The notes: generated by a model from the letters alone, not told the origin. A stretch of DNA of 64,000 nucleotides from Candidatus Levyibacteriota bacterium (GCA_016186625.1 JACPLG010000003.1:98576-162575); one strand, 5' to 3'; positions 3,625 to 38,776 are shown, counted from the first letter of the stretch. Numbers and translations are program-made.

Positions 3625-3693
3625 ACCCATCGTGGTTTGGGGCTGCGCCGTAACCGTTAATAGCGCGGATTTTGCGGTTGCAGGGAGGTGATA

Positions 3694-4335
3694 ATGATGA
3701 GCAAAAAACTTTTGTCTATATTACTAATAATTTCAGCGGTTTTTGCGTTTACTTTTGCGAATTCCGCGGTTGCCAAGATTGGTGTGGGAGTCGGTTTGGG
3801 AAAAGTTCAAATTGATGAGAAGCTTTCTCCCGGCGGAATTTATAAATTGCCTACTCTTCCTGTTCTAAACACAGGCGATGAGGATGGAGATTACGAAGTT
3901 GAAGTTACTTATCTTTCCGACCAGCCGGAATTTCAGCCACCGGGTGAGTGGTTTACCTTCACTCCCCAAAGTTTTTCCCTTGATGCCGGCGGTTCACAAT
4001 TGGTTGAGGTATCATTAACTCTTCCGGTTGATGCCAGACCCGGCAATTATTTTGCTTTTTTGGAAGCCCATCCCAAGGCCAAGGGTGAAGGGGTGACTAT
4101 TGGCATTGCCGCTGCCACCAAGCTTAATTTTACAGTTAAGCCTGCCGGTGTATTGGGCGCTGCTATTGAGAGGCTGAGAAGCCTTCTTGAAAACAACGCT
4201 CCTTTCTCTTATATTATTATTGCCGTTGTTGGTGGTGTTTTAGTTCTAAGTTTATTGGTAGTAGTCGGCAGGAAATATTTAGCGGTGCAAATTCGCTTCA
4301 AAGGTAAGTCCGCTAAAAATAAGGAGGGAGGCTAA
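3694..4335 (+). CDS. cell-surface protein: signal peptide plus C-terminal TM anchor with basic tail
   Basis: SD GGGAGGTG; ORF-track start is GTG 3688, ATG 3694 more likely; N-terminal signal; C-terminal IIIAVVGGVLVLSLLVVVGRKY...KGKSAKNKEGG. Confidence 0.6.
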   Translation: MMSKKLLSILLIISAVFAFTFANSAVAKIGVGVGLGKVQIDEKLSPGGIYKLPTLPVLNTGDEDGDYEVEVTYLSDQPEFQPPGEWFTFTPQSFSLDAGGSQLVEVSLTLPVDARPGNYFAFLEAHPKAKGEGVTIGIAAATKLNFTVKPAGVLGAAIERLRSLLENNAPFSYIIIAVVGGVLVLSLLVVVGRKYLAVQIRFKGKSAKNKEGG

Positions 4336-4337
4336 AG

Positions 4338-4799
4338 TTGAGAACATTGGGAATCATCGCTAGTGGTTTTTTACTGCTAGCGACCGCTTTGGGGCCGGTT
4401 CATGCCCAGGGCGGTACTGTTTCCGCTACTGTCAGGCCTAACCCGCTGACTGTTTCTGTTTCCGCTCCCGACCCTGTCACTGTTGGCCAGTGGTTTTATA
4501 TCAAAGCCGAAGTAACCAATTTAGGTAATCAGGCCATCACCAACACCGTGGTCACCATCAATACACCAGCTGGGATAATCGTCCGGGGACAGAAAAAAAT
4601 TAAGATTGGCGATCTTACCGGCAGCCAGACTCAAACAGTTACTTGGCTCGCCAAAGCCAATAGCTCCGGTACTTTTATCATTCAGGTTGAAGCAACGGGT
4701 GATTTGGCCGGTGAACAAATCTCTTCATCCGATTCTCTCAGCATCTCCGCCGTCAGTTCTCTTGCCGCTTTCCTGTTCCGGCTAATCTTTAATGTCTAA
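4338..4799 (+). CDS. secreted DUF11/CARDB-like repeat-domain protein
   Basis: TTG start with AAGGAGGGAGG SD; signal peptide; motif EVTNLGNQAITNTVVTINTPAG typical of DUF11/CARDB adhesin-like domains. Confidence 0.55.
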   Translation: MRTLGIIASGFLLLATALGPVHAQGGTVSATVRPNPLTVSVSAPDPVTVGQWFYIKAEVTNLGNQAITNTVVTINTPAGIIVRGQKKIKIGDLTGSQTQTVTWLAKANSSGTFIIQVEATGDLAGEQISSSDSLSISAVSSLAAFLFRLIFNV

Positions 4800-5160
4800 A
4801 GTGTTCATGAAGAAGGTTTTCATCACCGTCCTTGTAGCTATCGTGATTGCTTTTGGCGCCAGTCTCATCTTATTAAACCGTCAACCGCCAAAAGACGAAT
4901 CCTACGCCCATGCTCCCGATTATTCTTGGGTTACCGGACAACTTCAATATCAGGACATTGAGGGTGGTTTCTGGATAATACGTTTTGGCAGCAGGGATGC
5001 TCCCTACAATGGCCAATTCGTTTTAGGAAAAGACTCGCGTTTGCAAAATTTTAAAAATGGCGATTTGGTAAAAATTACAGGCAAAATATCGCAGGACCAA
5101 ATTAGCATTTATCAAGCCGGTACCATTTACACCCTTCAGTCTATCGAATTTCTCAAATAA
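4792..5160 (+). CDS. membrane-anchored hypothetical protein
   Basis: 122-aa ORF with N-terminal TM helix; 8-nt overlap with upstream gene (operon). Confidence 0.45.
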   Translation: MSKVFMKKVFITVLVAIVIAFGASLILLNRQPPKDESYAHAPDYSWVTGQLQYQDIEGGFWIIRFGSRDAPYNGQFVLGKDSRLQNFKNGDLVKITGKISQDQISIYQAGTIYTLQSIEFLK

Positions 5161-5214
5161 ATCCCCTTATCCCACACCAGTATGTGCAGACACATAGGGA
5201 TTCGGTGGCGATAA

Positions 5215-5511
5215 TTAACATTTTACCTTCCCACATTCCATGTGGGAATACATTTTTCGAAGCTCTTTTTTTGCTTTTTCTAAAATTTTCTTTCTTTCGG
5301 GCGCTAAATTTTTACCGGCGCGGTTAATATAAAAATTAAGCATACTCATGGCGGATTGAAAAGGAGAGGCTTTCCGTCTGGTACTGACATCTGCTGAACG
5401 CTTAAGGCTCAAAGCAATTTTTTTGGGATCATCCCAGGTAAAAACCCCCTCCTCTAAATCCAGTGCGATACTATGTTTGGTAACCTCTCCTGACCATTTC
5501 TTTTTACTCAT
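5215..5511 (-). CDS. DUF3175 family protein
   Basis: Pattern KKWSxEVTxHSxALDLE...SAMSMLNFYINRAGKNL matches DUF3175; C-terminal 8 residues are encoded by the hairpin repeat at 5228-5248. Confidence 0.6.
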   Translation of the reverse strand: MSKKKWSGEVTKHSIALDLEEGVFTWDDPKKIALSLKRSADVSTRRKASPFQSAMSMLNFYINRAGKNLAPERKKILEKAKKELRKMYSHMECGKVKC

Positions 5512-24673: not shown

Positions 24674-25477
24674 TTACTGGATTGTATCAAGGGCTGCCTT
24701 AAATGACTCGAAAGGCTGGGCGCCCACAAGGATAGTTCCTTGGAATTTACCTTGTGAATTCGATTTTCCTATAAAAAACGTTGGAGTTCCGTTAGCACCA
24801 TACGCTGATGCGTCTGCCAAATCTTTATCAACTTCCTCCTTATACTTTTCAGAATCAAGACATGATTGAAGCGCACTGCCATTTAACCCTAAATCATTTG
24901 CAATAACCGATAATTGATCGAGTGCAAGTCCTGTTCCGTTTGATGTTGTCCGTTTAAAAATCTCATCGTGGTATTTGAAATAAGCAGTGTCTCCACCCTG
25001 TTCTCTAGCACACTCGGCAGCTTGGGATTCTTTATGTGCATTTTGGTGGAAATCTAAAGGTAAATCGCGAATTACAAGCTTAACTTTTCCAGTATCTATA
25101 TATTCACTTTTAATCTGAGGCAGTGTCTCATCAAAAAATCTTTTACAAAAAGGACACTCATAATCAACAAATTCAATCATCGTAATAGGAGCGTTTTTAT
25201 CTCCCATAACAGGATCATCATCAACTGAAACTTCAATCGGGCCTGTGGGCTGTTGTGGGGCTTGGGGATCTAAACCTTGAGCTATAGAAGAATTATTCCC
25301 AGATACGTTTTTTTCAAGATAAGTTACTTTTGTATATAAAACTCCAATTAAAAATGATGCAACAATGAGAAGTATTCCTAGAACATAGATAATATTTAAT
25401 TTGGAAATTTTAGAAACAATTGATAAGGCATTACTTTTTAATAAATTATTCCCAGATTTTTCACTTTCTGTTGGCAT
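24674..25477 (-). CDS. DsbA-family thiol:disulfide oxidoreductase, membrane-anchored
   Basis: FVDYECPFCKRF active site (CPFC); DsbA-like thioredoxin domain; N-terminal TM. Confidence 0.8.
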   Translation of the reverse strand: MPTESEKSGNNLLKSNALSIVSKISKLNIIYVLGILLIVASFLIGVLYTKVTYLEKNVSGNNSSIAQGLDPQAPQQPTGPIEVSVDDDPVMGDKNAPITMIEFVDYECPFCKRFFDETLPQIKSEYIDTGKVKLVIRDLPLDFHQNAHKESQAAECAREQGGDTAYFKYHDEIFKRTTSNGTGLALDQLSVIANDLGLNGSALQSCLDSEKYKEEVDKDLADASAYGANGTPTFFIGKSNSQGKFQGTILVGAQPFESFKAALDTIQ

Positions 25478-25528: not shown

Positions 25529-26536
25529 TTATTCCCGGGGTGTATAAAGGAATGAGGCATTTAATTTATCAAAAGATTTATTAGAGGAGTTTTCAAAGTA
25601 AGCTTTGCTGTAACTTTGAGAAGAACTGCAGGAATTTACACATTGATTAATATTACTGCATAGCATCAAAATATCTTGGCTTTCATCATGAATTTCATCT
25701 GCATACACAGGAGTTATTACCATAATAATAACTGCTACTGAAGATAGTAAGGTGAGAAAGAGATGTTTTAAACGAAACTGTCTGCGGTTATAATTTTTAT
25801 TTACCAATGAATAAATTCGAGGCTCAAGAGTCTCATAGTCGGCGATTGCCGCAACCGGAATTGTTTCAACTATAGGATATGACAGAAGTTTTTTGAGTGC
25901 TGAGATAAGCGGTTTCCTATCACCAATTCTAGCAACTGCAAATTTATCAGCTTTTATTTCTCGTTCAATTCTATATTTTCTAATAATATCCGAAAGCAGG
26001 GGGAAAAAGGGGAAAAATGAATGAAGAGCTGAGGCAACAAGCATTATAAAAGTATCATGATTTTTTAAATGATACTCTTCATGAAGAATTACCGCCTTTA
26101 TTTCTTTTTTTGAGAGGCGAGAAAGGAGCGCTTCTGATATATAAATTTTTTGTGCTCTTATGCCAAAACAAAAAGCAAACAGCTTATTTGATTCAATTAT
26201 TACTATTTTTTCCTTCAATCCATAATTTTTTATAAACTCTTTTTTTGAATAATCAATTTTTACTTTGTCAATAAGTTTATTTTTTAAAATTTGTATCCTG
26301 ATTATTAAAATTATAAATTTGATAACATAGATTGCTATTATAAGAAAAAATCCTATAAGAGGAATTATACTTAAGTAGTGGGGGATGTGAATTATAAAGC
26401 TACTTATAAATGACTGACAGTAATATATTGCGTGACCTATTAAAGGGAAGAGTTTTTGAATAATAAACAGTAGTGTTATTCCAAGTATTGCAAACAATCC
26501 TAAAAACAAAGCGAGATTTTTATTTATTCTTATCAT
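25529..26536 (-). CDS. BlaR1/MecR1-like M56 peptidase transmembrane domain protein, no penicillin-binding sensor domain; Cys-rich C-terminal tail
   Basis: 4 TM plus ILHEEYHLKNHD (HExxH of M56); 335 aa versus about 585 for full BlaR1. Confidence 0.7.
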   Translation of the reverse strand: MIRINKNLALFLGLFAILGITLLFIIQKLFPLIGHAIYYCQSFISSFIIHIPHYLSIIPLIGFFLIIAIYVIKFIILIIRIQILKNKLIDKVKIDYSKKEFIKNYGLKEKIVIIESNKLFAFCFGIRAQKIYISEALLSRLSKKEIKAVILHEEYHLKNHDTFIMLVASALHSFFPFFPLLSDIIRKYRIEREIKADKFAVARIGDRKPLISALKKLLSYPIVETIPVAAIADYETLEPRIYSLVNKNYNRRQFRLKHLFLTLLSSVAVIIMVITPVYADEIHDESQDILMLCSNINQCVNSCSSSQSYSKAYFENSSNKSFDKLNASFLYTPRE

Positions 26537-26900
26537 GTTCTTCTAGAATCTTTAAAAAATACTTTTTCTTTTTCTGGGGCAACTTATCTACACTTTCCGC
26601 AAACGAGGCAATTGCGCTGTCTCCAAACGAATTAATAAATCGTTTCAAAAATGTCTGAGCAACATTTTTAGTGTATGATTCTCTGCTTACTTTAGGCGAG
26701 TAAACATATCCCTCTTTCTCTATTTTTTTAATAACTAAACCTTTTTCATTCAAGCGATTAAGAAGCGTGGCTATTGTTGTGTATGCGTATTTTTTATCTT
26801 TATTTATTTTGTTTAGAACATCTCTTGTAGAGCATTTTTTAAATTCCCAAACTATATCCATTACTCTCTGCTCTAAGTTGCTTAAGGATTTTAATTTCAT
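26520..26900 (-). CDS. BlaI/MecI/CopY-family transcriptional repressor
   Basis: LSNLEQRVMDIVWEFKKCSTRDVLNKI...YAYTTIATLLNRLNEKGLV winged-helix penicillinase-repressor pattern; overlaps the M56 gene by 17 nt. Confidence 0.8.
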   Translation of the reverse strand: MKLKSLSNLEQRVMDIVWEFKKCSTRDVLNKINKDKKYAYTTIATLLNRLNEKGLVIKKIEKEGYVYSPKVSRESYTKNVAQTFLKRFINSFGDSAIASFAESVDKLPQKKKKYFLKILEEHDKNK

Positions 26901-26940: not shown

Positions 26941-28389
26941 CTATATGCAACAACTTAACTTTGTAATATCTTGGGTAAATGAAAGCGCAACGAGTTTGAT
27001 TGACTCGGAAAGCGTTGGAAACATAGGTAGGGAATTAGCAACATCATCTATAGTATTTTTGTTTTTGATAAGCATCATCGCCTCTGCTATGAGTTCACCC
27101 GCATTAGGAGCTAAAATATGAACTCCCATAATCTGTTTTGTATCGGGATGAATTGCCATTTTAATAAGTCCTTCTGTTCTATTGAGGATTAAAGCTTTTG
27201 GAACATCTTTAAAAGAGACAGTCTTACACATACAAGTACCAAACTTTTCCATTTGCACTTCTTCGGTAAGTCCTACCCCTGCCAGTTGCGGATCCGTAAA
27301 AATAGTCCAGGGAACTGAGTTATAGTCTATACTGTTCTGCGTATCTTTGAGGGCATTTTCTGCTACCAGTGTTCCTTCTCTGCCTGCTGTTGTTTCTTGT
27401 CTTATAGGTAGATTGGTAACATCACCAACTGCAAAGATATGAGCTTGAGAAGTTTGAAAATGTTCATTTACTCTTACCGCTTGCTTGTCGGTAATTTCTA
27501 CTCCGGCTTTGTCAAGACTTAATCCTTTCGTATTTGGCGTTTTACCAGCTGCGAGTAAAATTTCATCGCCTGATACTTCTTCCACTTTACCATTAATACT
27601 ATAAGAAACAATCTTTTTGTCTCCTTCTTTTCTAGCACTCTTTACTTGGACATTTGTTTTAATGGAAATACCCTCTTCTGTAAGTATTTCTGTTAGTCTT
27701 GTAATTAGTTCTTCTTCTCCTCGGAAAATAGATGGTCCCCGGTGAAGAACTGTTACTTTTGTGCCAAACCGGGCATACATTTGAGCAAACTCAAGTCCTA
27801 CCGGTCCTGCTCCAATGACAATAAGTTCTTTTGGCTGTTGCTTAAGCTTTAAAGCCTCGATATGGGTTATATAACCTGTTTCTTTTATTCCTTCAATTGG
27901 AGGAACAGTCGCAGTTGAACCGGCTGCAATGATGAACTTCTTGGCTTGATATCTTTTTCCACCTTGTCCTGCCTGTCCGCCTCTGGAGGAAGATGTCGAA
28001 GGATCAACTTCTATTTCATTTGGGGAAACAAATACAGCCTGTCCTTCCAAATGAGTAACATTCTCTAAGTTACTGAGAACTTTTTCATATTTTTCAGCTC
28101 GTAATTTCGCCACCAGATCAAGTTCATATTGGACAACTCTTGCAAAATCAAAGTTTTTAATCTCAAGTTCTACTCCGGGAATACCATGGTGCTTTGCCTG
28201 ATGCATGATTTCACCTGCCCAGAGAAGTGTTTTAGATGGCACACAACCTACATTGACACACGTTCCACCAAGGGGCAAACCTTTATTTACCATTAAGGTT
28301 TTAGCTTTCAGTTCGCTTGCTTTAATGGCAGCGGCAAATGCTCCAGCTCCTCCGCCAATAATTATTAAATCAAAATTATTAATACTCAT
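26941..28389 (-). CDS. merA: class I pyridine nucleotide-disulfide oxidoreductase, mercuric reductase-like (core MerA without NmerA)
   Basis: GGTCVNVGCVPSK redox-active disulfide; FAD/NAD Rossmann motifs; C-terminal KLSCCI vicinal Cys pair as in MerA (LSCCAG). Confidence 0.6.
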   Translation of the reverse strand: MSINNFDLIIIGGGAGAFAAAIKASELKAKTLMVNKGLPLGGTCVNVGCVPSKTLLWAGEIMHQAKHHGIPGVELEIKNFDFARVVQYELDLVAKLRAEKYEKVLSNLENVTHLEGQAVFVSPNEIEVDPSTSSSRGGQAGQGGKRYQAKKFIIAAGSTATVPPIEGIKETGYITHIEALKLKQQPKELIVIGAGPVGLEFAQMYARFGTKVTVLHRGPSIFRGEEELITRLTEILTEEGISIKTNVQVKSARKEGDKKIVSYSINGKVEEVSGDEILLAAGKTPNTKGLSLDKAGVEITDKQAVRVNEHFQTSQAHIFAVGDVTNLPIRQETTAGREGTLVAENALKDTQNSIDYNSVPWTIFTDPQLAGVGLTEEVQMEKFGTCMCKTVSFKDVPKALILNRTEGLIKMAIHPDTKQIMGVHILAPNAGELIAEAMMLIKNKNTIDDVANSLPMFPTLSESIKLVALSFTQDITKLSCCI

Positions 28390-28440
28390 ACTTTAACCGC
28401 AATTCGGACACATAATCTTTCACCTCCTAAAAATCATAAA

Positions 28441-28746
28441 CTACGACATGAATTCTTTTAATGTTTTGGTAAACTCATTTTTCTTCATAGAATAATAGAC
28501 TGTCTGAGCTTCTTTTCTCCTTGTAACAAGCTCCAACTCCAAGAGTCTCTTGACGCTATGTGAGACAACAGAAATAGAAGTATCCAGAATTTTTGCCATT
28601 TCGCCAACAGAAATTTCAGGATAATGACAAAGAAGATAACAAATCTTTAAGCGAGTAGTATCTCCCACAACTCCTAATTGCTTGGCACAAGCAATAAGCT
28701 CCTTCTTATTTTTTAATTCCCTCTTGATTTGCAGATAGTCAGACAT
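28441..28746 (-). CDS. ArsR/SmtB-family metalloregulator
   Basis: HTH ICYLLCHYPEISVGEMAKILDTSISVVSHSVKRL; start set at MSDYLQ (ORF-track start 28794 possible). Confidence 0.6.
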   Translation of the reverse strand: MSDYLQIKRELKNKKELIACAKQLGVVGDTTRLKICYLLCHYPEISVGEMAKILDTSISVVSHSVKRLLELELVTRRKEAQTVYYSMKKNEFTKTLKEFMS

Positions 28747-28856
28747 GTATTTGAACGTATATTCAAATATACAAGCTGGGAATAGTAATGTCAAGAGGAT
28801 TAATTAATTCTTTCATACAGTAATTAAGTCTTTTTCAGCGCAAGTTTCATAATATT

Positions 28857-30932
28857 TTATAATTTTGTTCGCCGGAGTAGTAGGGCATTTGCAACTACAA
28901 TGATTGACGATGCAGACATTAAAACCGCGGCCCATTCGGGGCGAAGCAGTATTCCAAATGCGGGAAAAAGTACGCCCGCTGCCGTAGGTATTGCAAAAAC
29001 ATTATATCCTGTTGCCCATGCAAGATTCTGAACCATTTTGAAGTTGGTTTTGCGGGAAAGTGAAATTGCCTTAACAACATCTTGCAGATTATTTTTCATA
29101 AGTACTATTTCTGCTGATTCTACGGCAACGTCAGTTCCTGCCCCTATTGCAATTCCCATGTGTGCCTGAGTAAGACTTGGCGCATCATTCACGCCGTCCC
29201 CAACCATTGCCACAATATAGCCTTTATTCTGGAGTTCTTTGACTTTCTCAACTTTGTTACCAGGTAAAACTTCTGCAAAAACCGTATCAAGATTTAAAGC
29301 AAGACCAACTTCATCTGCCACTTCTTTTTTGTCCCCTGTCAGCATTGCTGTTTTTATGCCCATTTCGTGGAGCTTGTCAATCGCGGGACGGGACTCATCT
29401 CTTATTAAGTCGGACAATACGAAAGCGCCTGATAACTTTTTATCAATAGCAATATAAACTATTGTTCCTGCTTTTTTTGTCTTAAGTCTATTAATATCTT
29501 CTTTCTTAATACCTATCTCTTCCATCATGCGGCCGTTTCCCACAATAATTTCTTTATTATCAACCGTGCCCAAAGCGCCTTTGCCCGGATAAGATTTAAA
29601 ATTTTTAGGAGAAGGGGTCATAATTTTATGCTTTTTTGCTTCATTTACTATACCCATTGCTATTGAATGCTGGGAGGAGGATTCAACAGCTGCAGCAAGC
29701 CTTAATAGCTCCTCTTCCTCAACTACTGAATCTGATACGCGAACTGACTCTGCTATACCAAACTCTCCACGGGTAAGTGTCCCTGTTTTATCAAAAACTA
29801 CATAATTTATTTTCCGCGCTATCTCCAACCCTTTCATATCTTTTATTAAAATGCCGTTTTTAGCACCAAGTGTTGAGGTAATTGTTGTAACAGTTGGAAT
29901 AGCAAGGCCCAGCGCATGCGGGCAAGCAACAACCACAACCGCAACAGCAAGGGTTGATGCAAAGACTGCGCCTTGAGGATTAATAATTAGCCAATATATA
30001 AATGTTCCTGTTCCAATGGTTATTGCGGTTATTGTCAAAACGTTTGCGGCGCGGTCTGCAAGCTCCTGAACCTTTGGTTTTGATTCCTGTGCGTGTCTTA
30101 TCAAATCCATAATTTGGGAAATTGCCGTATCACTCCCTGTCTTTGTAACCTGAATCGTAAGCGACCCGTCCTGATTAATGGTTCCGCCTATAACTTTGTC
30201 TCCTTTTAATTTTCCTACGGGGCGGGATTCGCCTGTCACCATTGATTCATTAACAGAGCTTTCTCCATCCAAAACCTGTCCGTCAATTGGAATTTTTTCG
30301 CCCGGCTTGACAAGGAGTTTGTCACCTGATTTTACTTCATCGGTTTTAACATCAATAACCTTACCCTCTTTTAAAAGATGGGCTTGGGGCGGGATAAGTT
30401 TTGCAAGTTCTGAGAGCGCACCAGTTGTTCCACGAACCGCCCTCATCTCAAGCCAATGTCCAAGCAAAAATACTGAAATAAGAGTTGAAATTTCCCAAAA
30501 CAAAGACTCTCCGGGAAAAAGGAATGTAGCGGCAACTGAAAATGTATACCCAACAGTTATTGCCAGGGCAACAAGCGTCATCATTCCCGCATTCTTTGCA
30601 AAGAGTTCTCCCTTTGCGCCCCTAAAAAAAGGAACTCCCCCATAGAAAAATATAAATGTGCCAATGAAAAAAAGTGCAATTTCCCGGCCGGCAAAATCAA
30701 TACTTAATGAAAGCCAATTTTGAATATTTGGGGACAGAATCATTGCAAGAATAACAAAAGGAAGAGTTATGAAAAAACGCTTTTTGAATTCCTGCTCCAT
30801 TGAGGAATGATCTTCATGCTCAGACGCAGCAAGCGGGACAAGCTTCATTCCGCATTTTGGACAATTACCCGGTTTGTCCAGAATTATATCCGGATCCATA
30901 GGACAGGTATAAATTTTGTTATTCATATCCAT
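28857..30932 (-). CDS. heavy-metal translocating P1B-type ATPase (CPH-type, CopB-like) with N-terminal zinc-ribbon/YHS-like motif
   Basis: CPMDPD...CPKCGMKL; TGES; intramembrane CPH; DKTGTLT; GDGVNDAP. Confidence 0.9.
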
Positions 30933-30937
30933 TGTTG

Positions 30938-31237
30938 TTATTTTTTTGCCAGCCTGTTATATAATTCTACAAATGCGTATGACGTTACCCATGTTACTGC
31001 GGAAATTGTTACCAGCCCGTAAACAAGAGTTCCTAACGAAAGCTGAGTTTTTATTTTAATTGCTTCCAGGTTTAGCGAATGAACCCATGAATTTCCAATA
31101 CCAGCTACTAAGTCCGGAGCAACATAAGACAAGAGTGCGCAAGCTATAAAAAATATTGCTATAACTATTGTCGCAGCATTTGCAAAAGCGATAGATTTAA
31201 GCATAATTTTCACCTCCTTTACCCGCCGCTCAAGCAC
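30938..31237 (-). CDS. small membrane protein (3 TM)
   Basis: 99-aa hydrophobic ORF immediately upstream (in operon) of the ATPase. Confidence 0.4.
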
Positions 31238-31304: not shown

Positions 31305-31733
31305 TTAGTATCCCCAACTCTTCTGCCACTCCGTCATCATGTTAATTTCACTCGTCTGGGCTTTTATGATGTCATCGGCAAGATTTTTTATTTCATCATG
31401 GCTTGCATTTTGTTGAGCCAACTTTGCCATCTCAATTGCTCCCCGATGATGAGGAATCATTTGCTCTATAAATGCTTTGTCAAAATCATCCCCTGTTTTT
31501 CCTTCTAATGCATTAACCATGCCACTCATGGACATTTCGTCTTCTCCCATCATCTGATCATGCATTTGACTCATTCCTTGAGAAAATAAATCCTGGTTAT
31601 TAACCATCTGGCGCATCCCCATCATTCCCATCATTCCCATATTATTAGAATTAACTGCGTTATTTGCAAAAATAACAGTAATAACTATTCCCGCAAGAAA
31701 TCCAATTATTGCGTATAAATATTCTGTTTTCAT
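31305..31733 (-). CDS. DUF305-family protein with Met-rich (MGMMGMMGM) segment
   Basis: PHHRGAIEMAKL DUF305 motif; N-terminal TM; Met-rich copper-binding-like stretch. Confidence 0.65.
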   Translation of the reverse strand: MKTEYLYAIIGFLAGIVITVIFANNAVNSNNMGMMGMMGMRQMVNNQDLFSQGMSQMHDQMMGEDEMSMSGMVNALEGKTGDDFDKAFIEQMIPHHRGAIEMAKLAQQNASHDEIKNLADDIIKAQTSEINMMTEWQKSWGY

Positions 31734-31737
31734 TTTT

Positions 31738-32580
31738 TCACCTCCTTTTGATTTTTTTAAAAATATAATAAATTAGTCCAAAAATTAAAATCAAAAATAA
31801 GATATTTAAGAGAAAATTATTGCCCAGATAATCATTAACTAGTATTCCCGCGTCCTGAATTACTTTTGCAAATCTCTCACTTTTTGCCATCGAAAGCTGA
31901 CCGCGAAGTGTTAGAACAAAAATAAAAATCCCGGCAGTTATAAAAATAGTGAAAGAAATAAAATTACTTACACTTACAAAATATTCCCTTCCAAATATTT
32001 TTAGAACAGTTAATTTGCTTTTTAGAATTTTAAGTTTGTCTATTTTGTCCGATAGGAAAAGAGAGATTAGAAGAAGAGGAACTATCATTCCCAAAACATA
32101 AACACCGCCTATAAGAAGTGATCCAATGAAGGTTGGTGACAAAAATGCCAGTGCTAATATACCGATTAGAACAGGTGCACAGCATGCGCTTGTTATTCCA
32201 GAGAAAATTCCAAGCGTAAATATAGACAAAACATCTACTTTTCCCTCATTCCTTGTAGGAAGATGAATCATAATAGGCGATTTAAGGCCAAGAAGTGAAG
32301 CAACTGCTACCAAAATCATAACAATTCCGCCAAGTATATATATAGTATCGTGATTTCTGTATAGAAATTGAGATATGAGCGCAACTCCTAAAACTGCGGG
32401 CATGAGTACTACAAAAATTCCTGCGCCAAAAACCAGAGTCATAGAGAGAACTTTTTCTTTCTCTTTAAATACGCTTCCTAAATAGGCAGGAAGTAGGAAT
32501 GTTATGCAACAAGGAGCAAAAAGCGCAATCATTCCTGCTACAAATGCCGCAATAAGTGAGATTTGAAAAATTCCATCCAT
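31738..32580 (-). CDS. CcdA/DsbD-fold transmembrane protein with vicinal Cys-Cys pairs in two TM helices
   Basis: FAPCCITFLLPAYLG and SACCAPVLIGIL occupy the positions of the CcdA TM1/TM4 cysteines; 280 aa, multi-TM. Confidence 0.6.
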   Translation of the reverse strand: MDGIFQISLIAAFVAGMIALFAPCCITFLLPAYLGSVFKEKEKVLSMTLVFGAGIFVVLMPAVLGVALISQFLYRNHDTIYILGGIVMILVAVASLLGLKSPIMIHLPTRNEGKVDVLSIFTLGIFSGITSACCAPVLIGILALAFLSPTFIGSLLIGGVYVLGMIVPLLLISLFLSDKIDKLKILKSKLTVLKIFGREYFVSVSNFISFTIFITAGIFIFVLTLRGQLSMAKSERFAKVIQDAGILVNDYLGNNFLLNILFLILIFGLIYYIFKKIKRR

Positions 32581-32582
32581 AT

Positions 32583-33518
32583 TTATGCCGAGCAGCTCCC
32601 TCCTTCTCCATCAAGACTTGGCCAGGGGATTTGTCCTACTCTTTCTCTAACCACGCCATATCCGTCTGAGCTTGAGAAAGTTTTGGATAAAAGCTCTTTA
32701 GGAGAAACTTTTGCAAACTCTCTTCCGTTTTCTTCAAAAAAGTAAGCAATATCTAAATATGTATCTGGAAACCAATATGTATTGAGTGCTAAAGCAGCTT
32801 TATAAATCTCTTCTTGTGATTTTCCTTGAGAAACCATCAACTCAATTAGCCCAAGCATTGCCATTCCGTGATTGCAATCGGGAAATGCTGTTGAGTTCCC
32901 ACAACATGGCCTGTAAATACTGCCTGCTATCTCCGAAACTGCTTTTTGCTGATCTTTAGAAAGTGTAATATAAGAATGTCCGGAATAATGATCCATTGGA
33001 TCTCCTACCCCCAAACTCCATCCGCCAGTTGATGCAAAAATTGAAGGATCACTCTCCACCATCATCTCTCCTTCTTCCAAGATCCGATTTCTATTGGCAA
33101 GTCCCAGTCCCCACAGTATATCTACCCAAAATTGCGAATTTTCCAAATTTACTTCTATTTGATCTTGTCCTTCTTCAAAATATTTATCCAAATCTTTTGG
33201 AAGCTCATCTCCCCCTGTTACTGCCTGAGCTAACTTCACCTTATCAATAACTCCATCCTCAACCATTCTTCTTCCAAGATCTGCCCATTTAATATTCAAT
33301 ACATAACTGTCTTTAATTACTTTGTTTTGTAGGGCAGAGAGTTTTTCCTCATCAATATTTTGTGATACATCAAAATCCGAAGAGTTGGAATTTTTTGAGG
33401 TTGTTTTTTCAAAAAGAACGCCAAGAAGAAACGTTGTAATAGAAAAAAGAATAATTAAAAGAATTTTCAAAAGAATATCCAAGACATTCTTCTTAAATTT
33501 TCTAATTTTTACTTTCAC
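32583..33518 (-). CDS. membrane-anchored hypothetical protein with PCC/C motif
   Basis: 311 aa; N-terminal TM; RPCCGNSTAFPDCNHG motif. Confidence 0.5.
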   Translation of the reverse strand: MKVKIRKFKKNVLDILLKILLIILFSITTFLLGVLFEKTTSKNSNSSDFDVSQNIDEEKLSALQNKVIKDSYVLNIKWADLGRRMVEDGVIDKVKLAQAVTGGDELPKDLDKYFEEGQDQIEVNLENSQFWVDILWGLGLANRNRILEEGEMMVESDPSIFASTGGWSLGVGDPMDHYSGHSYITLSKDQQKAVSEIAGSIYRPCCGNSTAFPDCNHGMAMLGLIELMVSQGKSQEEIYKAALALNTYWFPDTYLDIAYFFEENGREFAKVSPKELLSKTFSSSDGYGVVRERVGQIPWPSLDGEGGSCSA

Positions 33519-34024
33519 TTAACAACATTCCCTTCAAAAGAAAATTCAACGTAGGGATTGTCCGGATCATTTGTTTCAAAACTGACAAACCTTGAAATTT
33601 TACCTACTCCCTGTGGTCCATGATAAGCAGGATCAAACGCAGCAACTACTTCTCCCTCTTCTCCCGGCCGGAGTATTCCTTTCCAATCTGATGGAGCAGA
33701 CATTCCTTTCATTCCAAAACTTGGTCCGTCTTTTCCATTTTGCCTTAGAAAAACTTTTGTACACATACAAGAAGTTGTCATATTTGCTATCTCTAAATCT
33801 TTAGTTCCATTATTTCTAATAGGAAAACTGTGATATAGAATTCCGTCCGAAAAGCCTATATCGCCTACTGTTTTAGCGGCATGATCAATTAAAACCTCTG
33901 CTCCAGATATTGAGGAAAGCATCGCTTTTGTTTCTGTTTTGGATTTTGATGAAATAAAAATAGCTCCAATAATAATTGTGCCTACAACTAGACCTAGCAT
34001 GACAAAAAGTTTTAAATTATTCAC
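33515..34024 (-). CDS. DUF1573-domain protein, membrane-anchored
   Basis: FPIRNNGTKDLEIANMTTSCMCT matches the DUF1573 signature (N.G...L.I..v..sCgCT). Confidence 0.6.
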   Translation of the reverse strand: MNNLKLFVMLGLVVGTIIIGAIFISSKSKTETKAMLSSISGAEVLIDHAAKTVGDIGFSDGILYHSFPIRNNGTKDLEIANMTTSCMCTKVFLRQNGKDGPSFGMKGMSAPSDWKGILRPGEEGEVVAAFDPAYHGPQGVGKISRFVSFETNDPDNPYVEFSFEGNVVK

Positions 34025-34032
34025 TATTAATT

Positions 34033-34560
34033 TTATAAATATTTATTCGGACTCTTCTTAAATGTTTCAAAACATCCTGATGCACAGAAATAATATGAAA
34101 GGCCGTTTAAATCCAAGGCATATGATGCTGTTTTTGGACTAAGTCTCATTTTGCACACGGGATCATTAGTTAGAGGAACTAGATCTGTCATTTTTTTGGT
34201 AAGATTTTCCATTAAAGGATCGTTTTTACTTTTATGCTGCTCTACTAGAATCTCCCTCATTAAATCACTTGCTTTTATAAAATTTTTATGGGCAATTTTG
34301 TAGTAAATTTGCTTACCGTTTCTTTTTGTTGTTACAACATTTGCCTCTCGCAGAACTTGAAGGTGCTGGCTTAAATTTCCCTGTGGCAGGCTTAACATTT
34401 CCTGAATTTCACCAACAGTTAATTCCTGACTTCGAAGAAGCTGAAGAATTTCCAAGCGTTTTGGGTTGGACAGTGCTTTAAGCAGTTTTGCATGTAGACT
34501 AAACACTTCTGAATACATATTCGATATTTCGAATATATCATGGCGACAGACCACTGTCAA
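34033..34560 (-). CDS. ArsR-family regulator fused to C-terminal TRASH/YHS metal-binding domain
   Basis: ArsR HTH LSNPKRLEILQLLRSQELTVGEIQEML...HLQVLREANVV; C-terminal DPVCKMRL...YYFCASGCFETF (C-x19-C-x3-C). Confidence 0.75.
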   Translation of the reverse strand: MTVVCRHDIFEISNMYSEVFSLHAKLLKALSNPKRLEILQLLRSQELTVGEIQEMLSLPQGNLSQHLQVLREANVVTTKRNGKQIYYKIAHKNFIKASDLMREILVEQHKSKNDPLMENLTKKMTDLVPLTNDPVCKMRLSPKTASYALDLNGLSYYFCASGCFETFKKSPNKYL

Positions 34561-34591: not shown

Positions 34592-35125
34592 GTGAGATTT
34601 AATCCAAGAATATTAATTATAGTAATTATTGCAATTTCACTTATATTTATCGGTATATTTTATTTATTCAATTCCAAACAGAGTAACCAATCACAGACCT
34701 CATCCACTACTCAAAATTCGTCTGAGATAACATCAGAAAAATTTGATTATAAGGCTTCCTTTGCAATTTATACTAATGGCACTTTCAGAATCTTCGAAGA
34801 TCCAAAATATCACAATCTCTCAGAAGATGTTTATATTGGTTCCAGTAATCCGAACATTGTAAATATTAAAAAGGCAAATATAACATGGGATAATTTTTTC
34901 AAAACTCTTCCTATGAGTTTAAGAAAGGATTGTTTAACTACCGGAACAATCCAAACTTTTTGTACAAATGGAGAGTTTGTTTTGCAATTTTATATAAATG
35001 GTACTCGAAACCAATCTGCGCTTGATCAAGTGATAAATCTTGGAGATAAACTGCTTGTAACTTTTGAGCGAGAAAATTCACCAGTAATCCAGAGTCAGAT
35101 TTCTTCAATTCCGGACTCTAACTGA
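34592..35125 (+). CDS. membrane-anchored hypothetical protein
   Basis: 177 aa; N-terminal TM; followed by hairpin ACCTGCCTTTAGAGGCAGGT. Confidence 0.5.
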   Translation: MRFNPRILIIVIIAISLIFIGIFYLFNSKQSNQSQTSSTTQNSSEITSEKFDYKASFAIYTNGTFRIFEDPKYHNLSEDVYIGSSNPNIVNIKKANITWDNFFKTLPMSLRKDCLTTGTIQTFCTNGEFVLQFYINGTRNQSALDQVINLGDKLLVTFERENSPVIQSQISSIPDSN

Positions 35126-35360: not shown

Positions 35361-37103
35361 ATGAGTTTGCTTTTGATATTCGCTTTAGTCTCTGGGCTAA
35401 TTACAATTCTAGCGCCGTGTATATGGCCGCTTCTTCCTATTATTCTCTCTGCAACTGCAACAGGCGGACATAGAAAACCTCTTGGAATAACACTTGGAAT
35501 AATTATCAGTTTTGGGATCGTAACCTTAACAATTTCATATATTGTCAGAATTATTCCGTTTGATCCAAATATTCTTCGTATATTTTCAGTAATTGTGATT
35601 ACAACTTTGGGATTAACGCTCCTTATTCCAAAACTCTCAGGAATTTTAGAAGGCTATGTCAGTAGGCTGTCAGGAAAATTTGCAATTCAGCGTCAGGGAA
35701 ACGGATTTTGGGCGGGGCTGATTACTGGTTTTGCCCTGGGAATTGTTTGGACTCCATGTGCCGGACCAATTCTTGCAACAATTGCAACTCTTGCTGCAAC
35801 ACAGCAGGTAAATAGCTCAATAATATTAGTTACTATTGTATATGTAATTGGCGTTGGAATCCCTCTTTTTCTTTTTGCAATCCTTGGAAGAAGAATTTTC
35901 TCAGGTTCCAAACTTTTATCTCCCTATCTAGGAAAAATTCAACAGGTGTTTGGGGCGATTATGATAATAACTGCAATTTTAATATTTACAAATTATGATA
36001 AGACACTTCAGGCAAAACTTCTTGATCTTTTTCCTTCATACGGAAATTTTATTATTAATCTAGAAAGTAATGAAAAAGTTAAAAAACAGCTTGATAATTT
36101 AAGGGGTGGAACAAACAAGGGAGACGAGATGATTGGAAAACCTTTTGAAATGCCAAAAAGCAACAACCTTCCCAATTTGGGAACAGCACCTGAGTTTGTG
36201 GGAATAAGTAATTGGCTTAACAGTAAACCTTTGATGATGGAGGGGCTTAAAGGAAAAGTAGTTTTGATAGATTTTTGGACTTACACTTGTATTAATTGTA
36301 TTAGAACTCTTCCCCACGTAACTTCCTGGTACAACAAATATAATGATCAGGGATTTGTAGTGGTTGGTGTTCATACTCCTGAATTTGAATTTGAAAAAGA
36401 TACAGGAAACGTTGAGAATGCCATTGCCCAATACAAAATTCTTTATCCAGTTGCGCAAGACAATGACTATGCCACTTGGAATGCCTACTCTAATCAATAT
36501 TGGCCGGCAAAGTATTTGATCGACAAAGATGGTAATATCCGATATGCACATTTTGGAGAAGGAAAATATGAAGAAACAGAGAAAGCAATTCAAGAACTGC
36601 TCAGGCAAGCTGGCCAAAAAGTAGATTCCTCTTTAGAACAAATGCCGGATCAGACACCAAGGATGCGGCTTTCACCCGAAACTTATCTTGGATCAGCACG
36701 AATGCAATACTATTATCCTTCAGGAACCTTATCGAACGGAAAATCCAATTTTAAACTCGAAGAAAACCCATCGCCTAACTCTTTTAGTCTGGGCGGAGAA
36801 TGGGAAATAAGCGATGAGTATTCCGGTCCTTCTAAAAATTCAACTTTAACAATTAATTTCTACGCAGACAAGGTTTTTCTTGTTTTAAAACCGCAAAGTT
36901 CAAATTCTGCGACAAGAATTTATATAGATGGTAAACTCGTGGATTCTAATAATCAAGGAACAGACGTAAAAAACGGAATTATGAATATTGATTCTGATAG
37001 GCTTTATAATTTAGTAGACCTACAAAACGGACCGGAAACACACACCTTAAAAATCGAATTCTTAACTCCTGGGGTAAAAGCTTTTGCTTTTACTTTTGGT
37101 TAA
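35361..37103 (+). CDS. DipZ-like protein: CcdA/DsbD transmembrane domain fused to thioredoxin-like and C-terminal beta-sandwich domain
   Basis: ILAPCIWPLLP and WTPCAGPILA (CcdA TM cysteines); thioredoxin-like WTYTCINCIRTLPH. Confidence 0.85.
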   Translation: MSLLLIFALVSGLITILAPCIWPLLPIILSATATGGHRKPLGITLGIIISFGIVTLTISYIVRIIPFDPNILRIFSVIVITTLGLTLLIPKLSGILEGYVSRLSGKFAIQRQGNGFWAGLITGFALGIVWTPCAGPILATIATLAATQQVNSSIILVTIVYVIGVGIPLFLFAILGRRIFSGSKLLSPYLGKIQQVFGAIMIITAILIFTNYDKTLQAKLLDLFPSYGNFIINLESNEKVKKQLDNLRGGTNKGDEMIGKPFEMPKSNNLPNLGTAPEFVGISNWLNSKPLMMEGLKGKVVLIDFWTYTCINCIRTLPHVTSWYNKYNDQGFVVVGVHTPEFEFEKDTGNVENAIAQYKILYPVAQDNDYATWNAYSNQYWPAKYLIDKDGNIRYAHFGEGKYEETEKAIQELLRQAGQKVDSSLEQMPDQTPRMRLSPETYLGSARMQYYYPSGTLSNGKSNFKLEENPSPNSFSLGGEWEISDEYSGPSKNSTLTINFYADKVFLVLKPQSSNSATRIYIDGKLVDSNNQGTDVKNGIMNIDSDRLYNLVDLQNGPETHTLKIEFLTPGVKAFAFTFG

Positions 37104-37230: not shown

Positions 37231-38214
37231 TTGATTAAATTTTATAATTCCGCAATGAGTTTGGAACGGGAAGGCAGAGCAGATTTCTCAACTGAAACTT
37301 ATCAAATAGGTGCAATGGGGGTTAAAGTCAGCTCAAGAGTTTTGCTTCCAAGTCAAGAGGGAATGATCATTCCCGATAGAAGGATTTTAGAAGAATCAAT
37401 AGTTTTCTTGCCAGGTTGGGGAGTAGATTCAAATTCTAGATCCGCATCTTTAATCGGACAATCTTTTGCTGATGCCGGCGGACAAAGTACGCTAGTTGTT
37501 GATACACAACCAAATGGTGTAGCAAGAGACTCTCTTTTTAGAGAATCTGTGGCTATTGCTGATTTTTTACGAAATCTAGGACTAAGAAGAATAACTTTAG
37601 TGGGTTACTCTGAAGGCGGGATTAAGGCTGCTAATTTAGCTGTTATATTACAGGATTCAGAAATAGAAATTGATGGACTAGTTTTAATGGATCCTATGGG
37701 ATTATACCGGCAAAAACAAACTGGTTTATTTTTGGGTTTTTTTAAAAATGCTTTTCGAAGTGCTCAAAGCCTAAGAGATACTAATATCGTAGATAGACGG
37801 GATTTATTCAGTCGCGGATTCCAATCAGCCGGAGATCTTGCGCTTAATCTTTTAAGAGAAGCTATAAGAATGAAAGGAAAATATCCAAAGAGAATTGTAT
37901 CCCAAGCCAAAAATATGGCAGCAGCAAATCCTAGATTTGGTGAGGTTGATCTGCCCATTGTTTTAATACAAGGAGCTCAAGATCCAGTGTCTAATCCAGA
38001 TCGAACTCTCCCGGGATATAAGGATAAAAAACCGATTGAGAGACAGGAAGCTCTTCAGAGAACTATTTTCCCAAGGAGTCCCTATATCAGAATGGTTACT
38101 GGAGAAAAGTCTCCCATTCATACAATGCCTATATTAAGAGCCGAACAAATTGCTAGAGTTTCACTAAGATTAATCGGGAGATTTCAAAAAGGACAAGTCA
38201 ATTCTCCAACCTAA
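37231..38214 (+). CDS. alpha/beta-hydrolase fold protein
   Basis: GYSEGG nucleophile elbow (GxSxG); 327 aa. Confidence 0.55.
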   Translation: MIKFYNSAMSLEREGRADFSTETYQIGAMGVKVSSRVLLPSQEGMIIPDRRILEESIVFLPGWGVDSNSRSASLIGQSFADAGGQSTLVVDTQPNGVARDSLFRESVAIADFLRNLGLRRITLVGYSEGGIKAANLAVILQDSEIEIDGLVLMDPMGLYRQKQTGLFLGFFKNAFRSAQSLRDTNIVDRRDLFSRGFQSAGDLALNLLREAIRMKGKYPKRIVSQAKNMAAANPRFGEVDLPIVLIQGAQDPVSNPDRTLPGYKDKKPIERQEALQRTIFPRSPYIRMVTGEKSPIHTMPILRAEQIARVSLRLIGRFQKGQVNSPT

Positions 38215-38776
38215 TTTTATATTCGTCTCTAACTTCTTCACCAAATTTTTCCATTAACTTCTTAAGTTTTGGCGTTATTACATAAGTGCAATACGGCGCA
38301 TCTTTATTTTTTTCAAAATAGCTTTTGTGGTAATCTTCTGCAATATAGAAGTTTTTGAACGGCTCTATTGTTGTAACAATTGGCCGAGAGAAAACCTTTT
38401 CCTGTTCTAAATCTTTTATAAACTTTTGAGCAATATCATTCTGCTTTGCAGAATGATAAAAAACAACCGATCTATACTGCTCTCCAACATCATTTCCTTG
38501 CTGATTTGGCGTTGTGGGGTCATGGGTATAGAAGAAAACCTCAAGAAGCTTTTCATATGCGATTTCCGAAGGGTCAAACTCTATCTGGATTGCCTCGGCA
38601 TGCCCAGTTGTGCCTTCACAAACTTGCTCATATGTTGGGTTTTCGATCGAACCTCCGCTATATCCGGGCAAAACCGAGGAAACGCCTTTTAATCTTTTAA
38701 AAATTGCCTCCGTACACCAAAAACAACCGCCTCCGAAGCTAGCTATTTCGTTATTAGTTTTTTGTGTAACCAGCAT
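38198..38776 (-). CDS. msrA: peptide methionine sulfoxide reductase MsrA
   Basis: [13 protein letters not shown] active-site motif; full-length 192 aa. Confidence 0.9.
   Translation of the reverse strand: MLVTQKTNNEIASFGGGCFWCTEAIFKRLKGVSSVLPGYSGGSIENPTYEQVCEGTTGHAEAIQIEFDPSEIAYEKLLEVFFYTHDPTTPNQQGNDVGEQYRSVVFYHSAKQNDIAQKFIKDLEQEKVFSRPIVTTIEPFKNFYIAEDYHKSYFEKNKDAPYCTYVITPKLKKLMEKFGEEVRDEYKIRLEN

Follow-up and report, generated by a model that had tools for sequence, protein, structure and literature searches.

Does a CcdA-like membrane protein in which each canonical cysteine has become a cysteine pair carry mercury, copper, or electrons? This question is raised by a gene at positions 31738-32580 (minus strand) in a 64,000-nucleotide stretch of the genome of a Candidatus Levyibacteriota bacterium (GCA_016186625.1 JACPLG010000003.1:98576-162575; hereafter the window, from whose first letter all positions are counted). 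A gene for MerA lies close by, and a preliminary description of this DNA had proposed that the protein, which we refer to as CC-CcdA, is a MerT-like importer of Hg(II) or another metal. We found that CC-CcdA belongs to a copper-stress operon, not to a mercury system, and that it marks a copper-stress module. We tentatively propose, giving this reading slightly less than an even chance, that CC-CcdA acts as a CcdA under copper stress and supplies reducing power to cysteine proteins outside the cell.

Sequence Places CC-CcdA in the CcdA/DsbD Family

The open reading frame (ORF) encodes 280 amino acids, and its product is 100% identical to a hypothetical protein from a metagenome-assembled genome of Candidatus Levybacteria (Patescibacteria). 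The protein has four cysteines in total, arranged as two vicinal pairs, FAPCCITFLLP and SACCAPVLIG. As read from the DNA, the codons for Cys24-Cys25 (APCC, transmembrane helix (TM) 1) are located at 32506-32511 and those for Cys133-Cys134 (SACCAPVL, TM4) at 32179-32184, both on the minus strand.

As a single sequence, CC-CcdA matched nothing in Pfam or NCBIfam, even at E<=10. A profile of 18 family members, however, reached the CcdA of Thermus thermophilus (5VKV) with E=5.7e-8, and the alignment placed 'aPCc' on 'sPCV' and 'aCCaP' on 'pCigP', with the first cysteine of each pair on the canonical cysteine. The DipZ protein of the window (35361-37103, plus strand), which has canonical CcdA and thioredoxin-like domains (APCI / TPCAGP), aligned with CC-CcdA in the same register as 5VKV. 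Additionally, matches to PF02683 are precomputed for many homologs, and the relatives P0148 and P0123 score 3.3e-13 and 9.2e-5. The AlphaFold2 (AF2) model of CC-CcdA, built with 18 sequences, is too poor for geometry (predicted local distance difference test (pLDDT) 57), and its best PDB match by Foldseek, at this low confidence, was again 5VKV (probability 0.91, TM score 0.38-0.45). An alignment of the N-terminal with the C-terminal half by hhalign gave no signal of the two inverted three-helix repeats that make up the core of the family. Because the registers of 5VKV and DipZ and the Foldseek match agree, the first cysteine of each pair is the canonical one and the second is an addition. From homology and register, we conclude that CC-CcdA is by its sequence a member of the CcdA/DsbD family (PF02683 DsbD_TM; TC 5.A.1), divergent and with seven predicted TM helices around a four-cysteine center. 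The proposed CcdA/DsbD scaffold with vicinal cysteines at both canonical positions was thereby borne out, with the cysteine positions equivalent once the family profile was used, although the single sequence stays below the Pfam thresholds.

Both pairs are kept in 120/120 of the closest homologs (58-100% identity). When a family profile was run against 1.84 billion representatives of clusters at 50% identity, 1279 matched at E<=0.001. Among the best 150 of these 1279, 99 carried both pairs, 36 were fragments showing one CC site, and 12 had single cysteines, all of the latter at rank 105 or lower; no full-length mixed form, with one CC pair and one single cysteine, was seen among these 150. The invariance in 120/120 homologs and the 99/150 representatives argue that the pairs are not there by chance. 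The preliminary description had regarded a wide occurrence of CC variants in ordinary CcdA proteins as evidence against a special role. We did find SPCC in TM1 of ordinary actinobacterial CcdA, where it is combined with a single cysteine in TM4 (TPCxGP), but the doubled state at both sites is confined to the copper-linked clade. By motif search alone, CC-CcdA is present in at least 558 species-level genomes (>2000 proteins recovered). The databases label the subfamily 'cytochrome c biogenesis protein CcdA' or 'hypothetical', and the Streptomyces homologs retrieved by a name search are all called 'CcdA family protein'.

CC-CcdA Marks a Copper-Stress Module

We compared 80 species-representative loci that encode a close relative of CC-CcdA, nearly all of them from Patescibacteria. 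A gene for a DUF1573 protein is located directly upstream of the CC-CcdA gene in 79/80 loci, and a gene for a Cys/His protein of novel predicted fold, from a family that we call X311, is present in 71/80. A Cu(I)-type regulator was found in 59/80 loci (CsoR in 56 and an ArsR protein with a YHS domain, ArsR-YHS, in 3), a CopB-type ATPase in 58/80 (43 of the 52 loci flanked by 5 kb or more on each side), and a DUF5676 protein in 39/80. The ArsR-YHS/TRASH regulator heads the cassette in loci L007, L075, L076, and L096, the place that CsoR takes in 56/80. In the CsoR family, a C-H-C set of residues forms the Cu(I) ligands and thus indicates copper sensing. In the C...H...C fingerprint of the CsoR proteins of these loci, the first cysteine and the histidine are invariant (56/56) and the second cysteine is kept in 50/56. 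In all, the context was copper-specific in 80/80 loci. A true MerA (at least 400 bits, within 10 kb) was near CC-CcdA in only 1/80, so the co-occurrence of the CC variant with merA, for which the preliminary description had suggested a survey, does not hold. Its broader idea of a scaffold tied to a thiophilic metal survives in that CC-CcdA is tightly linked to thiophilic-metal genes; the metal is copper and not mercury.

Small Met/Gly-rich or DUF2933 membrane peptides are encoded directly beside CC-CcdA in several lineages (L001 8847-8990, L096 5795-6001, L006 8930-9109, L088 7529-7777). Other proteins of the DsbD superfamily occur in the same copper islands, among them an HMA-DsbD_2-cupredoxin fusion and a 'sulfite exporter TauE/SafE family protein' next to a small 'cation transporter' gene (L006 1817-3205; L087 3312-4412). 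These further DsbD-fold proteins suggest a wider, uncharacterized metal-handling use of the fold. Many GTDB records with the Patescibacteria-type cassette (L007, L009, L011, L013, and others) are titled 'uncultured Gammaproteobacteria' or 'Rikenellaceae', which are probably placeholder or mis-binned labels.

Organization of the Operon in the Window

In the window, the genes between 34560 and 28857 on the minus strand run in the same direction, overlap or follow each other closely, and are headed by a single strong promoter-like site. The gene order is ArsR-YHS, DUF1573, X311, CC-CcdA, DUF305/CopM-like, DUF5676, and CopB ATPase, followed by ArsR and MerA. The first gene encodes an ArsR/SmtB-type metalloregulator with a C-terminal YHS/TRASH metal-binding domain (34033-34560; Pfam HTH_5 6.4e-15, YHS 1.4e-10; NCBIfam HTH_metalloreg 9.9e-26). 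It is followed by a membrane-anchored DUF1573 protein with an immunoglobulin (Ig)-like fold and an invariant TSCxCT (CxC) motif (33515-34024; Pfam DUF1573 2.9e-09) and by X311 (32583-33518), an extracellular protein with a membrane anchor whose family has not been described. Downstream of CC-CcdA are a Met-rich DUF305/CopM-like protein (31305-31733; Pfam DUF305 1.5e-19; NCBIfam CopM 4.9e-19, below its cutoff), the two-TM DUF5676 protein, a frequent companion in the cassette (30938-31237; Pfam 5.3e-18), and the CopB-type P1B ATPase (28857-30932; NCBIfam ATPase-IB1_Cu 1.6e-173), whose translation contains an N-terminal CPx..CPxC heavy-metal binding motif and a membrane CPH motif.

The ArsR-type regulator (28441-28794) and MerA (26941-28389) form a separate neighboring unit on the minus strand (26941-28794) that is not part of the cassette. 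MerA is genuine (TIGR02053 2.1e-150, above cutoff). The best two promoter-like sites on the minus strand head these two units: one at 34560-34532 (TTGACA-17-TATATT with TG, 11/12 matches) the copper operon, and a near-identical one at 28794-28766 (11/12 matches) the ArsR-merA pair. Since each site falls on the TTG at which its ArsR-type ORF mechanically starts (for the 34560-34532 site, the -35 hexamer falls on the TTG of ArsR-YHS), the true starts are probably internal ATGs near 34518 and 28746. The minus strand has only two terminator-like matches, both within the CopB ORF. To judge from the two promoter-like sites, the copper operon and the ArsR-merA unit are probably transcribed separately. 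The preliminary description had placed CC-CcdA two ORFs from the MerA-like gene and next to the DUF305 and CopB genes. The DUF305 gene is indeed adjacent, but CopB is two ORFs away, and four ORFs (DUF305, DUF5676, CopB, and ArsR) separate CC-CcdA from MerA.

The MerA of the window is without an N-terminal HMA domain, ends in LSCCI, and is paired with ArsR only, with no recognizable Hg transporter nearby. The same two-gene ArsR-MerA module follows CopB in one other locus only (L029 13888-15700, Daviesbacteria). Genes for extracytoplasmic thiol-redox proteins flank the island, namely a DsbA-like protein (24674-25477, minus strand), DipZ, and MsrA (38198-38776, minus strand), and an unannotated 177-amino acid secreted protein is encoded upstream of DipZ (34592-35125). 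Further, a pair consisting of a BlaI/CopY-type repressor and an M56 peptidase is located at 25529-26900 (minus strand), with a Cys-rich tail (CSNINQCVNSCSS) at the end of this copy. Pfam detected no penicillin-binding sensor domain in this copy, which may be a metal or thiol-stress sensor. BlaI/CopY-M56 pairs recur beside copper islands of both Patescibacteria and Actinobacteria (L087 6562-7907, L089 6248-7584, L037, L042, L046, L071, and L082).

Candidate Extracellular Partners and Predicted Cytoplasmic Additions

Two families accompany CC-CcdA on the predicted extracellular side. In the DUF1573 proteins of the cassette, C86 and C88 of the TSCxCT motif are invariant, and we regard DUF1573 as a candidate extracellular partner of CC-CcdA. 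A selenoprotein form of the DUF1573 motif, with UGC, is on record (PMC9312934). Some loci encode two or three DUF1573 paralogs, and one (L096 5058-5786) encodes a fusion of Rhodanese and DUF1573 that hints at extracellular sulfur-transfer or redox chemistry.

X311 has more than 5247 homologs, all labeled 'hypothetical'. It matched no family in Pfam or NCBIfam, and no relative was found in the PDB, by sequence or by Foldseek with its confident AF2 model (pLDDT 89.3). The motifs RPCCGNSxxFPDCNHGMA and, at the C terminus, GGxCxA are invariant; the invariant residues include R203, C205, C206, D214, C215, N216, and H217, together with a cysteine three residues from the C terminus, on a low-confidence tail.

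For CC-CcdA, hydropathy and the AF2 helices indicate the six helices of CcdA and, after them, a beta-hairpin, an amphipathic helix, and one further helix, the seventh. The count of Lys and Arg residues (positive-inside rule) fits an N terminus outside and a C terminus inside, with loops 34-43, 99-116, and 178-203 and the tail KIKRR on the putative cytoplasmic side. Because the predicted seventh helix is added to the six core helices, the C terminus is predicted to be cytoplasmic. In the window protein it reads KKIKRR and has no Cys tail. Of the 314 full-length members analyzed, 106 carry CC, CxxC, or CH in the last 45 residues or are fused to an ATPase, with CC in 83; the tails include HECCEP (Patescibacteria) and ADCCD (Streptomyces). 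C-terminal fusions among the relatives include HMBD (P0123), HMBD plus a CPH-type P1B ATPase (P0125, also P0158), and YHS/TRASH (P0150), the last also in DPANN archaea. The fusion locus L096 retains the whole cassette. P0148 is a fusion of CC-CcdA with a redoxin, built like DipZ, that would require an extra anchor helix and carries CxxxC in its redoxin part. The fusions found among the relatives are consistent with the predicted cytoplasmic C terminus.

Relatives in Cultured Bacteria

Relatives of CC-CcdA are encoded on plasmids of Streptomyces, Rhodococcus, Cryobacterium, Rubrobacter, Burkholderia, Paraburkholderia, Microvirga, and Ralstonia, nearly all of them annotated 'cytochrome c biogenesis protein CcdA'. 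The CC motifs are present in all three that we read, from Streptomyces liliifuscus, Rhodococcus pseudokoreensis, and Burkholderia contaminans. In each of these three loci, the CC-CcdA gene is overlapped by a downstream gene for a membrane-anchored AhpC/TSA-Redoxin (TlpA-like) protein with a CQPC motif, and a small glutaredoxin- or thioredoxin-like gene with CxxC follows the redoxin gene. The redoxin partner Sl_Prx gave a weak SCO1 match. All three loci are copper islands, with CopC/D, CueR, multicopper oxidase, P-type ATPase, DUF305, DUF2933, and BlaI/CopY plus M56. The copper island of Burkholderia additionally holds an X311 homolog with a Tat-like signal (TRRRFL; L088 14129-15079).

Export of Reducing Power as a Tentative Reading

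How might a CcdA-type protein act under copper stress? In the mechanism that we tentatively favor, the cysteine cluster of CC-CcdA would alternately face the cytoplasm, where thioredoxin would reduce it, and the outside, where the reducing equivalents would pass to membrane-anchored cysteine proteins. The acceptors would be the DUF1573 CxC protein and X311 (CC..C.H plus the C-terminal cysteine) in the window organism and the TlpA-like CxxC redoxin in Actinobacteria and Burkholderia. As a result, copper-handling thiols would stay reduced under copper stress, as they are by ScsB via TlpA or ScsC. The two extra cysteines might form a second cross-helix pair or give copper tolerance.

A precedent is the DsbD-family protein ScsB, which confers copper tolerance and passes electrons to TlpA and a peroxiredoxin (PMC3322552). 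We favor an electron relay because of the homology to CcdA, the pairing with redoxin and glutaredoxin genes, and the redoxin fusion P0148. Thermodynamics also favor it, since reducing power would be exported downhill. In DsbD, the alpha domain serves as a redox carrier with an Ig-like fold, which makes an Ig-like CxC acceptor such as DUF1573 plausible. Further, the only single-Cys sister for which we fetched the context (P0254, locus L095) adjoins a DsbA-like gene, without copper genes, which is an ordinary thiol-redox setting and which we count in favor of electrons.

Several points weigh against this proposal. The cytoplasmic CC/CxxC/CH tails and the HMBD, YHS, and P1B-ATPase fusions of 106/314 members are typical of metal hand-off rather than of thioredoxin-driven reduction. 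Partners with a thioredoxin fold or an Ig-like fold and Cys motifs can equally be copper chaperones (Sco-like, CopC-like), a view that fits the CxxxC of the P0148 redoxin and the SCO1 match of Sl_Prx. The cassette of the window has no dedicated thioredoxin-like partner, and the AF2 model of CC-CcdA is poor. Additionally, we know of no electron-carrying CcdA or DsbD that needs four membrane cysteines, and the need for four in electron transfer has no explanation here.

Competing Explanations

These points lead to the main rival, the second of the two readings that survive and one that we hold to be somewhat unlikely, namely that the four-cysteine center of CC-CcdA binds Cu(I) and, by alternating access, passes copper between cytoplasmic thiolate sites and the extracellular cysteines of DUF1573 and X311. 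The cytoplasmic sites would, with the same reservation, be the C-terminal CC/CH tails, HMBD, YHS, or the ATPase N terminus, in a copper counterpart of MerP-MerT-MerA. The LysE/DsbD superfamily does include true metal carriers (PMC4608589). Within the family, both pairs are invariant and doubled in an all-or-none fashion. Cytoplasmic metal-binding additions have recurred independently (HMBD; HMBD with P1B ATPase; YHS; tails in Patescibacteria as well as Actinobacteria) and are not obviously needed by an electron carrier; by the positive-inside count, the seventh helix would put the C terminus on the side where they could serve, and the cassette persists in full beside the fusion in L096. The regulators of the cassette, moreover, sense Cu(I). 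However, a carrier that spends no energy could not, we infer, export against external copper, and import followed by export through CopB would be futile. The window protein is itself without a Cys tail, and the tightly coupled partners in cultured relatives are redoxin- and glutaredoxin-like, the classic layout of an electron relay. We also count against a Cu(I) relay that, to our knowledge, no copper carrier working by a cysteine relay has been described. If it did apply, which we consider doubtful, copper carriers would gain a new type in CC-CcdA: a protein with the DsbD fold that moves Cu(I) rather than electrons by ligand exchange at a four-thiolate membrane site, in hundreds of Patescibacteria, Actinobacteria, Proteobacteria, and DPANN archaea.

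It is improbable that the cassette instead moves sulfane sulfur or reduces persulfides outside the cell, for example in copper sulfide precipitation under a CsoR/CstR-type regulator. The Rhodanese-DUF1573 fusion of L096 would suit such a relay, as would the NCBIfam rhodanese/DsbD fusion (TsoB) and TsoR, which are among the weak matches to neighbor genes, and regulators of the CsoR family control sulfur modules on Arthrobacter plasmids (PMC6305408). Yet the CsoR proteins of our loci have the Cu(I) C-H-C set and not a CstR-like pattern, rhodanese was noted only in L096 among the cassettes with inspected domains, and the neighbors are a copper ATPase, a CopM-like protein, and a multicopper oxidase.

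That CC-CcdA imports Hg(II) in the manner of MerT and supplies the neighboring MerA, as first proposed, we regard as very improbable. In its favor, MerT and MerF likewise have vicinal cysteines within a TM helix, a true MerA is encoded on the same strand at a distance of 3.3 kb, the island shows no other apparent Hg transporter, and CcdA-domain proteins of actinomycete mer operons bear the annotation of mercury transporter (PMC12195606). The occurrence of MerA in 1/80 loci, however, largely refutes it; the ArsR-merA pair has a regulator and a promoter-like site of its own, the cassette regulators are copper sensors of the Cu(I) type, and no MerT, MerF, or MerC model matches CC-CcdA. For comparison, we located through MerA an actinobacterial mer operon in Rhodococcus oxybenzonivorans (plasmid pRB29, locus L093). 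This operon (3581-5411, minus strand) encodes ArsR, a 107-amino acid MerF-like two-helix protein (a membrane CC and a C-terminal CC), a thioredoxin-like lipoprotein with CGEC, and a CcdA-like gene that a frameshift apparently splits and that the gene table of the plasmid omits. The mer-linked CcdA-like protein has single cysteines, resembles the single-Cys representatives only marginally, and gave no match to the window protein. A role in metal import found no supporting evidence. The gene is thus not that of a mercury importer despite the nearby merA, which corrects an easy mis-annotation.

That CC-CcdA is an ordinary cytochrome c biogenesis CcdA, the name in most database records and one backed by real homology to CcdA, is barely credible and was rejected on gene context, since no locus inspected has cytochrome c maturation genes, the window already encodes a canonical CcdA-thioredoxin fusion (DipZ), and the surroundings are copper-specific throughout.

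Comparison with Known Systems

The occurrence of a CcdA scaffold in an operon for a thiophilic metal has precedents: roles in resistance to mercury and copper have been assigned to the DsbD family (PMC4608589), and CcdA-domain 'mercury transporter' annotations exist in actinomycete mer operons (PMC12195606), with L093 as an example. The preliminary idea of a novel function for the scaffold is thus not wholly new. What we found undescribed is the subfamily with doubled pairs and its cassette: our literature search retrieved no paper on a CcdA with CC at both sites, on its DUF1573/X311 cassette with copper regulation, or on a link between DUF1573 and copper. CC-CcdA is a large, invariant subfamily with two uncharacterized partner families, DUF1573 and X311 (>5000 members). 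If its four membrane cysteines carry electrons, they extend the mechanism of DsbD; if they carry Cu(I), they reveal a thiolate-relay copper transporter, for which we know of no precedent. Because relatives are encoded on plasmids of cultivable Streptomyces, Rhodococcus, and Burkholderia, the question of the cargo is directly testable.

MerT and MerF share with CC-CcdA a vicinal cysteine pair in a TM helix; about one-third of the CC-CcdA relatives carry a second pair on the predicted cytoplasmic side, and the candidate external cysteine partner is analogous to MerP. In the window protein the TM pairs are present but the MerT-type cytoplasmic pair is absent. Unlike MerT and MerF, CC-CcdA has seven TM helices instead of two to three, is not linked to merA, and is accompanied by copper-sensing regulators; there is no sequence homology (no NCBIfam family at E<=0.01).

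The CcdA-like 'mercury transporter' of L093 likewise places the CcdA fold in a thiophilic-metal operon, next to a thioredoxin-like CxxC lipoprotein, and ends in a D-C-C tail as in the CC-CcdA of Streptomyces. It differs in its single cysteines in TM1 (NPCGF) and TM4 (LSCTFG) and in being linked to mer and not to copper.

The CcdA proteins of T. thermophilus (5VKV) and Bacillus subtilis have a homologous core, with six helices as predicted for CC-CcdA and with P-C...P.Y in TM1 and C..P.L in TM4 in the same register. CC-CcdA differs from them by a second cysteine directly after each canonical one and by Ala for Pro before the TM4 cysteine. It also adds the beta-hairpin, the amphipathic helix, and the seventh TM helix with its predicted cytoplasmic C terminus, falls below the Pfam thresholds, and is encoded in a copper operon rather than with cytochrome c or ResA genes.

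In the ScsB-ScsC/TlpA systems, too, a membrane protein of the DsbD superfamily is encoded in a locus for copper tolerance, together with extracytoplasmic partners that carry Cys motifs (PMC3322552), and the TlpA-like redoxin downstream of CC-CcdA in cultured relatives extends the likeness. ScsB, however, carries alpha and gamma (thioredoxin) domains, both large, in the periplasm, and its membrane cysteines are single, whereas CC-CcdA has no soluble domains and four membrane cysteines, and in Patescibacteria it is paired with DUF1573 and X311 instead of proteins with a thioredoxin fold.

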